Source: Anolis carolinensis (taxonomy: Eukaryota). Taken from it: a stretch of DNA of 64,000 nt. The notes under the pieces are model-generated. The model was not told where the DNA came from. It worked only from the letters and a program-made list of their open reading frames with translations, and searched no databases. Both the position numbers and the translations under genes were made by a program. The number at the start of each line of letters is the position of its first letter. Position 1 is the first letter of the stretch. This document shows positions 3,671 to 48,600 of the stretch, in pieces. Location of the stretch: positions 39,109,190 through 39,173,189 of the forward strand of contig NC_085846.1 in the NCBI RefSeq assembly GCF_035594765.1. Direction: 5' to 3'.

Positions 3671-4959
3671 GGGTTGCTGTGAGTTTTCCAGGCTGTATGG
3701 CCATGTTCCAGAAGCATTCTCTTCTGACGTTTTGCCCACATCTATGGCAGGCATCCTCGGAGGTTGTGAGATATATTGGAAAACTAAGCAAGGGAGGTTT
3801 ATATATCTGTGGAAGGTCCAGGGTGGGAGAAAGAACTCTTGTCTGTTGGAGGCCAGTGTGAATGTTGTAATTAATCACCTTGATTAGCATTAATGGCCTT
3901 GCCAGCTTAGCTGCCCTTGATTGATTCATGTTTGTAATTCCTCTATTTTCTGAGTGTTGTTCTTTATTTACTGTGCTGATTTTAGAGGTTTTTTTCAATA
4001 CTGGTAGCCAGATTTTGTTCATTTTCATGGTTTCCTCCTTTCTGTTGACATTGTCCACGTGTTCGTGGATTTCAATGTCTTCTCTATGTAGTCTGAGATG
4101 ATAGTTCCAGCATTTCTGTGTTCTCAAATAATATACTGTGTCCAGATTGGTTCATCAAGTGCTCTGCAATACCTTTCATGTCTGTAGTGCCTTTCATGTT
4201 GCTTGATTGGTGTCTGGGCAATGCTGCATTTGGTGGTTCCTATGTAGACTTGTCCACAGCTGCATGGCATACGGTAGATCCTGTAGAGGTGAGAGGATCT
4301 CTTTTGTCCTTCACTGAACGTAGCATTAGTTGGATTTTCTTAGTGGATCTGTAGATAGTTTGTAAACTGTATTTCTTCATCAGCTTTCCTATGCAGTCAG
4401 TGGTTCCCTTGATGTATGGTAAGAACACTTTTCCTTTGGGTGGATCTTTGTCTTTGCTCTCGTGACTTGTTCTTGGCCTTGCAGCTCTTCTGATGTCTGT
4501 GGTGGAGTATCCATTGGACTGTAGAGCCCAGTTTAGGTGGTTTAGTTCACCTTGGAGTCCCTGGTGGCACAGCGAGTTAAACCACTGAGCTGCTGAACTT
4601 GCTGACCAAAAGTTCGAATCTGGGAGCAGGTGAGTTCCCACTGTTAGCGCCAGCTTCTGCCAACCTAGCAGTTCGAAAACATGCAAATGTGAGTAGATCA
4701 ATAGGTACCACTCTGGCAGGAAGGTAACGGCACTCCATGTAGTCATGCCAACCACATGACCTTGGAGGTGTCTATGAACAACACCAGCTCTTCGGCTTAG
4801 AAATGGAGGTGAGCACTAACTCCCAGAGTCGGACACAACTAGACTTAATGTCAGGGAAAAACCTTTACCGTTACCTAGTTCACCTTGGAGGAAATGGGGT
4901 TCGCAGATTCTTTTTGCACGGTCTGCCAGGGCTTTGATTATGCTTCTTTTTTTACTTGG
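3671..4959 (-). mobile_element. Penelope-like retroelement fragment (C-terminal GIY-YIG region plus pseudo-LTR), with nested Sauria SINE
   Basis: Minus-strand peptides LPYIKGTTDCIGKLMKK...RSVKDKRDPL and HREDIEIHEHVDNVNRKEETMKMNKIWLPVLK. Terminal repeat shared with many copies in the window. Confidence 0.88.
4554..4875 (+). mobile_element. Sauria SINE
   Basis: tRNA-like head, (ACCTTT)n tail, target duplication TAGTTCACCTTGGAG at 4543-4557 and 4876-4890. Confidence 0.9.
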
Positions 4960-4969
4960 ATCTGTAGAT

Positions 4970-5291
4970 CCGGTGGCAAAGTGTGTTAAAGCACTGAGCT
5001 GCTGAACTTGCAGACCGAAAGGTCCCAAGTTCAAATCCTGGGAGCGGAGTGAGCGCCCGCTGTAAGCTTCAGCTACTGCCAACCTAGCAGTTCGAAAACA
5101 TGGCAATGTGAGTAGATCAATAGGTACCGCTCCGGCAGGAAGGTAACGGCGCTCCATGCAGTCATGCTGGCCACATGACCTTGGAGGTGTCTACGGACAA
5201 CGCCGGCTCTTCGGCTTAGAAATGGAGATGAGCACTAACCCCCAGAGTCAGACATGACTGGACTTAACGTCAGGGGAAACCTTTACCTTTT
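4970..5291 (+). mobile_element. Sauria SINE
   Basis: Same family, TSD ATCTGTAGAT. Further copies at 7599-7928 (+, TSD TATGGCCAT), 13406-13675 (-), 15018-15130 (-, head only), 22180-22340 (-), 46033-46175 (-, TSD ACATTACACTA), 49799-50125 (+). Confidence 0.9.
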
Positions 5292-5599
5292 ATCTGTAGA
5301 TATGTTCAATCTGTGAATACCTTTTGTAGGCAGAAGTTTCACATTTTCCCCTGGTTCACAATTTCATAACATTTTATGCATGCAGAATATGTTTGGTTCT
5401 GGATATCCGGAATACAGATCAAACAAATATCCCTCTGGTGCACATCCAGCCCTCTTGGTTGGCTCTACAAACTGTGCCAGCTTCCCAAACTCCCAAGAAG
5501 GCATCCACATAGAGTAGGTCTTGTGGCTGTGAGGCCAAAAGTGGCTCCAAGGAAGTGCGCTTTTCCCTACTGTGTTCCTTGCACTGTTTGCTTTGGGTT

Positions 5600-45031: not shown

Positions 45032-45329
45032 GCTGTCGGCCTCCTTTAATGTAAGGGGCTTTGGGCAGGGCAAGGGATCTCTTAGTTTTTTGATACTGTA
45101 GTTTATCCTGATTAAAAATAAAAGTAATACTGACCTTGTGAGGAATATGAAAGATCAATGTATCGCCAGCTCTTAAGTTTCCAGTGTGAGTCTGATGGGG
45201 GGGCAGCACTCCAAAGGGGGCGATTCTCTCCCTTAAAGGGACAGTCACCCATGCTTTCCCCTCTCAATGTGATGAAGTGGCTTGGCTTTGCACTGGAATC
45301 CTTAGCAAGGAAAAAAAAATAAACGACAG

Positions 45330-45620
45330 CATTCTAAAGTGCGCGCATGCTTTCACTTCCAATATTTATCATGCTTTCAGTCTCAAGAAATAAGCACTAA
45401 GCAGGGCTCTAAACACTCATCACAGACACCCCTATTAAGTGCGGACATACGGGCCTCCAGTGACGCACACTATGCGCGACAATAGCTCCTGTTTCATTAC
45501 GACCTGGGGGCGGGACTCTAGAGCGTGCGTCATCGTTCTGCGCCAGTCTGAAGCAAAGAAGGAAGGAGAAGAGAGAGGAAGGCTGACCTGCGGCCGGAGG
45601 AGGCTTCGGAGCCAAGATGG
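45330..45620 (+). promoter_or_regulatory. CWC25: CWC25 CpG-rich promoter
   Basis: CpG cluster with NRF1-like GCGCGCATGC (~45341), GC box GGGGCGGG (~45507) and YY1-like CCAAGATGG overlapping the ATG. Confidence 0.7.
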
Positions 45621-48600
45621 GGGGAGGCGACCTGGTAAGAAAAGCTGGGTTTTTGACTAAGGGTCCTTCCATACAGCCATATAACCCAGAATATCAAGGC
45701 AGGGCATCCCACAATATCTGCTTTGAACTGGGTTATCTGAGTCTACACTGCCATATAACCCAGCTCAAAACAGATAATGTGGGATTTTATTCAGCTGTGT
45801 GGAAGGGGCCAAAGGCTCCATTTACACTGCTATATAAAATCCAGATTGTCTGCTCTGAACTGGATAATATGGCAGTGTAGGCTCGTATAATTCAGTTTAA
45901 AGGAGATAATGTGGATTATCTGATTGGATAATCTGGATTATATAGCAGTGTGGAAGGGGCCTCGGTTGTTGGGACTCATTGTGAGGAGGGCAGCGGCTTC
46001 CTTTTCATTGGAAGAAGGATACATTACACTAGTAAAGGTAAAGGTTTCCCCTGAAGTTAAGTCCAGTCGTGACCGACTCTGAGGGTTGGTGCTCATCTGC
46101 ATTTCTAAGCCGAAGAGCCGGCGTTGTCCATAGACACCTCCAAGGTCATGTGGCTGGCATGACTGCATGGAGCGCAAACATTACACTACATCACAAAATT
46201 TGAAAAGAAAAATTATGTTGTGTTGCTGTGAGTTTTCTGGGCTGTATGGCCACATTCCAGAAGCATTCTCTCCTGACGTCATAACCCATAACTATGGTAG
46301 CCATCCTCAGAGGTTGTGAGGTCTGTTGGAAACTAGGCACATGAGGTTTATATATCTCTAGAATGTTCAAGATGGCCAATTGCAACACACACTTGCCTCA
46401 GGCAGACAAGAGTTCTTTCTCCCACATTGAACATTCCACAGATACATAAACCCCACTTGCCTAGTTTCCAACAGACCTCACAACCTCTGAGGATGCCTGC
46501 CATAGATGTAGGCGAAATGTCAGGAGATAATGCTTTTGGAACATGGCCATACAGCCTGGAAAACTCACAGCAACCTAGTGGTTCTGGCCATGAAAGCCTT
46601 CGGCAATACAAAAATTCTGTTCCTGGTTTGAAAGTATTTTTCTTATTTAATTGTGTGGTACTTACTTTGAAAGTAGTATTTATACTTCAGAAACCTCATT
46701 TTTGTGACTGTCACAAACTGTGTTGAATTGGTTGAGACTTGGTAAAGATATTCATTTAAAAACTAGAGCAAAATGCGCTGCAGGATGTCCCACAAAAACA
46801 AAGTTTGTGCAGTTTCATAAACTTTTGCCATGTTTTTATGGTAGAACCAATTAGGAAATTTATAGCCCAGGAACAAAAATCATGTTGTATAGTGTTATGA
46901 TGAGGCTATGGGGGCTTGACAAGGTATTCATTTTCTTTGTGGCTCATTCTTTCTTTCCTTCCTTTTTCTTCCCTCCCTTTTCTTTCTTTCTTCAATTCCT
47001 TCCTTCATCCTCCCCCCCCCTTCCTTTCTCTTCCCTTTTTCGTTCTTCCCTCCCTTCATACATTTTCCCTTCACTTCCTGCCTTCCCTGTTTTCTTCCCT
47101 CCCTCCTTTTTTTTTTCTTTCTCCCTCCCTTTCCATTGTACAAGTCACCTGGCAGCAGACGATCCATTTCTTGGCTAGTCACGTGAAAGAGGGCCACTTT
47201 ACCTAGTCATTGGATGAAGGATAAATTGGGATTGGAGGATGTTCCCCGGTATATATATAAAATTGTGGAGCATGCCTCTCTGCATGCATGATATGGACTG
47301 TTACATTATACACTTACACTGTCTTTCTGTTAGTTTTGTTTTATTTGAGTGTGTTTCTTGTTCTTGTTCTGTAGGGATGTTTTTGGAGAATGTTTATTCA
47401 ATGTTTATTCAAAGACGACATGGACTGATTTTTATGGATGAATGGATTTAACCATATGTCTTATATTTTTATATTGTATTGAATTGTTCTTAATGGATTT
47501 TATATATTGTTATGATTTTAACTATGTTTCAGCATCGAATTGCTGCCAGTTGTGTAAGCCGCCCTGAGTCCCTTCGGGTGAGAAGGGCAGGATATAAATG
47601 TTGGAAATAAATAAATAAATAAACTGCTTTTTTCTTATCAATAGAACTTGAAGAAAAGCTGGCATCCACAAACCTTGCGTAACGTGGAAAAGGTTTGGAA
47701 GGCAGAACAGAAACATGAAGCCGAACGCAAGAAAATCGAGGAACTCCAGCGGGAGCTGCATGAGGAGCGAGCACGAGAAGAAATGCAACGTTATGCAGAG
47801 GATGTGGGCGCAGTCAAGTATGTTAGAGGGGATTTTATTGGTGGGTGTTTTTGTTTAGGCCTTTAATTGAGTTAATTCTTCTCCAAGGCTTCACCATGAG
47901 AACAGACCAGAAGCAGGAAATGGACAGGGTTCTCATGAAAGAGTAGACATGGTCAGAAATATCATATTGTATACACTTTCCAGCTCTCTGTTATGTCAAG
48001 ATATAAATGCAGGAATGCAGTACTGTACCTCAGATATTTTATTTAAACTTTCCGTTAGCTTGCTAATTTTCTTTACAATGGGAAAGCCAGTTAGAACACT
48101 TATCTTTCTGTAGTCAGTGCCACTTCAGTATGTGGATTAGCAGTAGGGCTATGAGTGGCAACTAAACTCTTCCCCATTTCCTCAACTAACATTTTGGTGT
48201 TTGAATAATGTCTCTTTTTAGCGTAATCGCCTTTTCTTTGTATTAGTTTGAACATTTTTTTCACATCATTTCCACCCTGAATGAATTAGGAAAAAAGATG
48301 AGAAGCTAGAATGGATGTACCAAGGACCCGGAGGCATGGTGAACAGAGAGGAATACCTTATGGGCCGCCCAGTTGACAAGTATGTGTTTGAGCCAATGGA
48401 AGACAAGGAGGGAGGCTGTTCCTCTGAGACTGGCCTTCTGCCAGGCTCCATCTTTGCCCCTACGGGTGCCAACTCTGCCTTGGATATGGCCAGCAAGATC
48501 CGAGAAGACCCACTTTTCATGATAAGGTAACTAATGAATAATCTTCTATGAAAACTGACTAGTGTTCAGAAAGAATTGTACCATAAGTTACAAAGGAGTT

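Follow-up and report, generated by a model that had tools for sequence, protein, structure and literature searches.

Minimal hammerhead ribozymes of Penelope-like elements (PLEs) have been defined as motifs that occur in thousands per genome, mostly solitary, that are also found in close opposite-strand pairs, and that show low activity even as dimers (PMC4209133). A review gives the same account and credits dimer cleavage to Lunse et al. (PMC6765202). PLEs from many phyla retain the motif (PMC4209133), and reptile reports come from turtle and snakes, Anolis not being found among them. For the lizard Anolis carolinensis, Frangieh et al. 2024 (PMC11167929) described PAc, or Poseidon_Ac, a Penelope-like element of the Poseidon clade. 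According to its text, the open reading frame (ORF) of PAc starts at stem II of the hammerhead and the cut lies 26 bases past the start codon. RNA with a single motif (-126/+235, 500 nM) was not cut alone and was cut with PAc protein, endonuclease-dead protein included; the mutations C3G and G8C abolished cutting and the double mutant partly restored it. Catalytic mutants still inserted in vitro, so the ribozyme is dispensable for insertion, no RNA-seq reads started or ended at the cut, and the protein was predicted as a dimer. Here we compare these systems with a 64-kb window of A. carolinensis DNA (64,000 nucleotides of contig NC_085846.1). In an anole polymorphism data set 16,208 Penelope insertions have been counted (PMC7561263).

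Judged by their sequence, the window repeats are 5'-truncated insertions of PAc, each with the published minimal hammerhead of the element. The 41-base motif of the window is identical at 41/41 positions to the PAc template printed in PMC11167929 (compared by eye); a search of three text supplements of that paper did not find it. The motif sits at the junction of pseudo-long terminal repeat (pLTR) and ORF, and the ORF ATG lies inside it, made up of A9, the bulged U and G10.1. In the copy at 36234 the ATG is at 36243 and the cut is predicted after C36271, which is the published geometry of an AUG where stem II begins and a cut 26 bases after it. The A. carolinensis protein P0003 (836 aa) combines a reverse transcriptase (RT; RVT_1, E=9e-14) with a C-terminal GIY-YIG domain, and YVDD and GVY-YIG motifs could be read in its sequence. 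Its first 40 residues are the reading frame that opens at the hammerhead ATG, and upstream of the pLTRs at 3723, 24909 and 36234 there are broken remnants that correspond to its C-terminal part (tblastn, 64-92%). There was no full-length ORF of the element in the 64-kb window, and since Pfam gave no match on four window ORF remnants of the element, its identity rests on tblastn with P0003. Copies and remnants outside the inverted pairs are given below, where untailed copies end near +82 and tailed copies near +117 counted from the AUG.

3723-3763, reverse strand: dead PAc copy (U4>C, G12>A) with untailed end, from the motif scan
3945-4557, reverse strand: broken remnant of RT thumb and endonuclease, upstream of the pLTR at 3723, from tblastn with P0003
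7528-7599, reverse strand: tailed pLTR end beginning 3' of the hammerhead, from the nhmmer profile
7935-7976, reverse strand: partial second-subfamily copy without the 5' core, from motif scan and nhmmer
8774-8784 and 8922-8932: 11-bp target duplication of the 8793 insertion
8793-8833, forward strand: tailed copy with intact core and stem III AUGU (CpG change), upstream of the first TMEM98 coding exon
9211-9251, forward strand: second-subfamily copy with intact core CUGAAGA and ACGU and weakened stem II, ahead of the first coding exon of TMEM98
18952-18992, forward strand: dead copy (G12>A), sense, in the last TMEM98 intron
24909-24949, reverse strand: perfect copy of the PAc minimal hammerhead in the TMEM98-RPL23 interval, ending without a tail at about +82
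25193-25557, reverse strand: broken remnant of the GIY-YIG endonuclease, upstream of the pLTR at 24909, 82-85% identity to P0003
27616-27656, forward strand: decayed copy outside mapped gene spans, core bases kept, stem III AUGU, weak stems
35784-36356, forward strand: truncated PAc insertion with an inverted endonuclease-region piece (about 35784-35932, reverse strand), followed by the end of the ORF, the pLTR and a 3' end with tail (+114 to +117)
36234-36274, forward strand: perfect copy of the PAc minimal hammerhead, past the poly(A) signal of RPL23 and ahead of the SPMAP1 ATG
43038-43078, forward strand: dead second-subfamily copy (G12>A, U16.1>A), tailed, between SPMAP1 and CWC25

Altogether 17 motif-bearing copies were found, 16 by a 41-base mismatch scan with 36234-36274 as query and one, at 31330, with a 9-base deletion. 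An nhmmer profile built from seven tailed copies gave 20 pLTR ends, 17 of them motif-bearing and three beginning 3' of the motif. A relaxed core pattern matched 11 times against 1.5 +/- 1.3 by chance (0/100 shuffles reached 11), where 10 of the 11 matches are copies of one repeat and hence not independent events. Rfam reported no hammerhead family at gathering score across the window and none at E<=10 in 36100-38000. The core (CUGANGA / GAAA / UH) with open stem I ends is intact in 9 of the 14 gap-free copies that were scored; the copies at 7943 (that of 7935-7976), 31330 and 46273 were left out as truncated or gapped. Only 24909(-) and 36234(+), which lie on opposite strands and 11 kb apart, retain the core plus all three stems among these 14, together with the bulged base after A9, the pair G10.1-C11.1 and the loopless palindromic stem III, features that are partly lost in the other copies. 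A second subfamily (9211-9251, 43038-43078, 7935-7976) has a CUGAAGA core, an A.A mismatch in stem II and an upstream pLTR that differs from PAc by indels.

The original prediction had placed minimal type I hammerheads within Penelope pLTR ends, mostly as decayed copies, and this assignment holds. All 16 sites that it listed bear a full or partial copy, to which we add the one at 7935-7976(-), and its parse with intact cores, CCT-CTGAGGA-T-GCCTGC-CATAGAT-GTGGGC-GAAA-CG-TC-AGG, is exact to the letter at 36234-36274(+) and 24909-24949(-). Other details stood in part. The 6-bp stem II indeed has six pairs, but two of them are G.U. Near 9213(+), where an intact second-subfamily core had been described, core and ACGU are whole, but the closing pair 10.1-11.1 is G.U and stem II contains an A.A mismatch. 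Stem III, said to form only between two copies, is a loopless palindrome that one strand cannot close, yet RNA with a single motif is cut with PAc protein (PMC11167929).

In comparison with the minimal PLE hammerheads described so far, the window copies likewise have no loop 3, a palindromic 15.2-16.2, a bulge between 9 and 10.1, G10.1-C11.1, a long stem II and a short stem I, and likewise occur as solitary motifs from truncated elements and as close opposite-strand pairs. Their proximal stem I has 3 bp, whereas Schistosoma hammerheads have 4-5 bp. From PAc they differ in nothing of kind, only in being truncated, mostly decayed and accompanied by a second subfamily that we did not find described in the text of PMC11167929. 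Ribozyme, element, place over the start codon and insertion anatomy are already known in print. Animal non-LTR retrozymes (bioRxiv 10.64898/2026.07.22.740005; PMC7229834) are also type I hammerheads, related to pLTRs and common in introns and intergenic DNA. The copies could accordingly be proposed to represent such a non-coding tandem hammerhead repeat instead of truncated autonomous elements: many are only 100-250 bases long with little beyond the motif, and retrozymes are reported as pLTR-derived. Retrozymes are, however, non-coding head-to-tail repeats, and there were no head-to-tail units in the window; each copy has a 5' end of its own and gives way to unrelated flank at +82 or +117, and three copies extend upstream into RT or endonuclease remnants. 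We regard a retrozyme origin as extremely improbable.

The ends of the copies point to truncated PAc insertions made from uncut RNA. Counted from the AUG, 8 of the 17 3' ends lie near +82 and 7 at +114 to +121 (near +117), two lie elsewhere (+40, +61), and none (0/17) is at the cut (+29). These two end classes are about 35 bases apart, which matches the optional tail of 30-40 bp, and the pLTR overlaps the ORF start. For PAc, RT starts were mapped at +111 to +118 and the tail of 30-40 bases is the stretch between two start sites (PMC11167929); the window copies likewise end in this start region, with the tail between their two end classes. The +82 position would then be the second RT start site, as inferred from the 35-base gap. 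The cut site is spanned in 17/20 ends, as expected for an uncut template; since copying begins 50-90 bases downstream of the motif, most copies include it, even short ones. In public sequencing data (four runs from three studies) contigs of all four runs stop matching at 36324 (+82), and a break at 36356 (+114) is listed for one run; they had passed an 85% likeness filter and their status as RNA is a guess, so we make no claim on expression or RNA ends. A sequencing-run search for the motif gave no RNA run among the matches listed.

Five insertions consist of two pLTR arms in inverted orientation:

31113-31411, both strands: inverted two-arm insertion in RPL23 intron 1 with 11-bp target duplication; arm 31198(-) with G12>A, tailed; arm 31330(+) with stem II deletion and ACAU, untailed
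37754-37969: inverted two-arm insertion in SPMAP1 intron 1, predicted long hairpin; 37839(-) tailed and 37879(+) untailed, stem III AUGU in both
40203-40424: inverted two-arm insertion in SPMAP1 intron 1 with 11-bp target duplication; 40288(-) without 5' core, tailed; 40334(+) with ACAU, untailed
46223-46609: inverted two-arm insertion in CWC25 intron 1 with target duplication of 11 bp and one mismatch; 46273(-) heavily mutated, untailed; 46484(+) with AUGU, tailed
51984-52099: inverted two-arm insertion in a CWC25 intron with 11-bp target duplication; both arms begin 3' of the hammerhead

In all inverted pairs (5/5) one arm is tailed (near +117) and the other untailed (near +82). This arrangement looks as if both target strands had been primed from two internal start sites. 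An 11-bp target duplication was found in 5 of the 13 insertions tested (four exact, one with one mismatch), compared to 10/1000 random pairs, and was not found in the other 8/13. The duplication sites (8774/8922, 31099/31419, 40190/40419, 46208/46610, 51970/52101) are mostly AT-rich, and one ends in ATT, the reported cleavage motif of PAc. Thus 5' truncation, inverted arms and short target duplications are all seen in the window as for PLE insertions, whose described anatomy (PMC8557442, PMC3846280) includes head-to-head inverted pLTR arms, a tail on one arm, a pLTR over the first codons and short duplications. Differences are the length of the duplications, 11 bp here (5/13) versus 8-10 bp in the rotifer examples of these papers, and the many window insertions that are two pLTR arms alone. 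In the 36234 insertion (35784-36024) the end of the inverted 5' piece adjoins, in element coordinates, the point where the forward piece starts, which resembles a twin-priming inversion. In a single instance, the arm 52041-52099(+) starts about 2 bases 3' of where the hammerhead cut would fall; it was possibly copied from cut RNA or arose by chance truncation.

The decay of the copies is concentrated at CpG sites. The CpGs of the motif are C11.1-G12 and C15.2-G16.2, and in 14 first-subfamily copies compared with their majority 14/56 CpG cells differed versus 14/495 non-CpG cells. In the run contigs the only variants among those listed at no less than 5% within the 41 bases were the four CpG transitions (31, 19, 14 and 17% of depth in run X2). 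At non-CpG sites core cells differed in 2/134 cases versus 99/1018 in the flanks (p=5e-4), for copies that were selected by motif and are not independent, and for flanks that include inherited subfamily differences. This contrast, which the original prediction had named as a test, is not specific to the core, the remaining motif being similarly invariant and mostly coding. Between the subfamilies 0/11 invariant core positions changed and the sole core change is at the free position N7, whereas 19/48 upstream columns differ, indels included; the second subfamily is represented in both counts by two copies. We read this pattern of sequence conservation as constraint in active master elements followed by neutral decay after insertion.

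The same data raise the question of whether the motif might be conserved mainly as translation start, as N-terminal codons or as a protein-binding site, with catalysis vestigial in vivo even for the element. At non-CpG sites the core shows no stronger conservation than the remaining motif (2/134 vs 12/361, p=0.37), loop 2 is equally invariant (1/94) and the 3' three quarters of the motif are coding. Catalytic mutants inserting normally in vitro, the lack of cut ends in RNA-seq (both PMC11167929) and the 17/20 ends from RNA spanning the cut would fit as well. Vestigial catalysis does not account as readily for the unchanged invariant core positions in a second subfamily with so many upstream changes, for the CUGA-G part, which is non-coding, for the loss of cutting in C3G and G8C with partial rescue by the double mutant (PMC11167929), or for a motif kept across PLEs of many phyla. 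We therefore consider it unlikely, but worth keeping in mind.

Folding predictions gave hammerhead-like minimum-energy folds for 0/4 monomers; the CUGA core was placed in a short local hairpin in three and was otherwise paired in the fourth, and folding z-scores of -0.9 to +1.4 did not support a stable monomer fold. A forced double hammerhead of two identical strands was predicted at -24.9 (36234) and -22.3 kcal/mol (24909), compared to -35.2 and -39.6 kcal/mol for two free monomers and -43.5 and -46.1 kcal/mol for the unconstrained pair. The forced form thus lies 10-17 kcal/mol above two free monomers, and pairing as a dimer appears possible on paper but is not the favoured predicted fold. 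These energies say only that the active fold would need help, in line with the protein requirement. Dimer cleavage of other PLE hammerheads was reportedly shown by Lunse et al. (RNA Biol 14:1499).

The original prediction had named TMEM98, RPL23, SPMAP1 and CWC25 as host genes, all four of them rightly. Gene borders are based on homology and splice-site reading, and non-coding first exons lie outside the mapped spans. For CWC25, exon segments were 92-100% identical to the A. carolinensis protein P0131, mismatches falling at the edges of segments, and identity to Pogona dropped to 54-64% in variable exons, which makes the host an Anolis, most likely A. carolinensis.

9553 to about 19760, forward strand: TMEM98 coding exons
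29063-35187, forward strand: RPL23, with AATAAA at 35212-35217
36751 (ATG)-41987, forward strand: SPMAP1
45617-55469, forward strand: CWC25

Nine of the 17 copies (five insertions; five copies sense and four antisense) are inside the mapped gene spans, which cover 31.5 of 64 kb. The density in host introns and the sense orientation that had been emphasized are therefore not visible as enrichment, with about half of the copies in about half of the window. The emphasis on introns does not suit the two perfect copies either, both of which are outside mapped introns: 24909(-) lies between TMEM98 and RPL23, and 36234(+) follows the RPL23 AATAAA by about 1.0 kb and precedes the SPMAP1 ATG (36751) by about 0.48 kb. 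All nine copies in gene spans are damaged in core or stem III, and eight of them are arms of inverted pairs. Ultraconserved amniote intronic hammerhead motifs exist, and an undamaged hammerhead in a mapped intron, as in this host-exapted intronic type, was found in 0/9 copies. At 36440-36458, some 290 bases ahead of the SPMAP1 ATG, a polypyrimidine run ends in AG and may represent a splice acceptor; if real, it would place the 36234 copy in a 5' untranslated region (5'-UTR) intron.

Scattered copies might still act on host RNA, if two copies per pre-mRNA, or one host copy together with element RNA or protein in trans, led to cutting of TMEM98, RPL23 read-through, SPMAP1 or CWC25 RNA. Read-through RNA is expected past a poly(A) signal, and the perfect 36234(+) copy lies in sense orientation about 1.0 kb beyond that of RPL23. 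The copies 8793(+) and 9211(+) could form a predicted hetero-stem III with one wobble, and PAc protein activates single-motif RNA in vitro (PMC11167929). But 0/9 copies in mapped introns are undamaged and 8/9 belong to inverted pairs, for which long hairpins with energies of -152 to -235 kcal/mol are predicted. Forcing 8793 and 9211 into a double hammerhead costs about 25 kcal/mol relative to the minimum-energy fold predicted for the 495-base stretch that holds them, and some 11 kb separates the two perfect copies, which occupy opposite strands. PMC11167929 reports no RNA-seq reads starting or ending at the cut, and minimal PLE hammerheads are slow even as dimers (PMC4209133, PMC6765202). A literature search, with subscription journals mostly outside its coverage, listed no publication in which PAc motifs act on introns of the host. 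Action on host RNA is in our judgement very unlikely, and the more specific idea that PAc protein licenses rare host-RNA cuts at intact solitary copies, for example just past the RPL23 poly(A) site, is still a shade less probable.

We conclude that the ribozyme very probably acts only in the protein-bound RNA of the element, probably as a double hammerhead, and that the genomic copies are very probably inert by-products of internal priming. The motif is seen here at the pLTR/ORF junction with the AUG within it. Reverse transcription begins internally on uncut RNA, at about +82 (inferred) or at +111 to +118, as found in vitro (PMC11167929) and matched by the copy ends. Cleavage requires PAc protein and the core bases C3 and G8 (PMC11167929), and its active form may be a double hammerhead joined through ACGU/ACGU and stabilised by the protein against competing folds. 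Inserted copies lose C11.1, G12, C15.2 or G16.2 through CpG transitions, as seen in the window. Host pre-mRNAs would remain uncut because every copy in a mapped intron is damaged and most intronic copies are predicted to fold back onto an antisense arm of their own; the motifs probably have no effect on neighbouring genes.

Several points weigh against this conclusion. The perfect 36234(+) copy is, as described, sense-oriented 1.0 kb beyond the poly(A) signal of RPL23. Three intronic copies in sense orientation (37879, 40334 and 46484) retain all core bases, where AUGU could pair via G.U wobbles. On the TMEM98 strand 418 bases separate 8793(+) from 9211(+), and with an acceptor-like AG downstream of them (9480-9481) the two may belong to one 5'-UTR intron. 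The text of PMC11167929 leaves it undecided whether the protein-assisted cut is intra- or intermolecular. The cleavage behaviour of the window copies is here a prediction from sequence and folding, nearest-neighbour energies omit tertiary contacts and proteins, and the variant table for the run contigs covers the listed rows that remained after the 85% likeness filter.

Apart from the hammerheads, the inverted pairs at 31100-31430, 37750-37985, 40195-40440 and 46210-46620 are predicted to form long double-stranded RNA hairpins in RPL23, SPMAP1 and CWC25 pre-mRNA, and these are possible candidate substrates for A-to-I (adenosine-to-inosine) editing or small-RNA processing. Sub-threshold matches to Rfam microRNA models at 37812-37946 were rejected and ascribed to the inverted repeat. 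Mammalian RPL23 introns carry SNORA21; in the RPL23 introns of the window no small nucleolar RNA was found at Rfam gathering score. The window further contains a tRNA-Cys(GCA) gene at 26226-26298(-), remnants of other retroelements within 15171-16620 (zf-RVT match at 15675-16151) with a second copy at 22483-23487, and an RVT_1 fragment at 57677-58399.

As it stands, the finding matters little. The window nevertheless provides a small independent genomic check of the in vitro PAc model, through its two end classes, one per arm in 5/5 pairs, its cut-spanning templates and its 11-bp duplications. Tentatively, and with the odds clearly against it, we suggest that the PAc hammerhead might be a protein-gated feedback switch: the protein would bind two element RNAs and pair their ACGU palindromes, the cut would sever the AUG from the ORF, and synthesis would stop as protein accumulates. 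This idea was not found stated in the literature searched, which covered few subscription journals. If true, it would explain why PLEs keep a slow ribozyme that is not needed for insertion.

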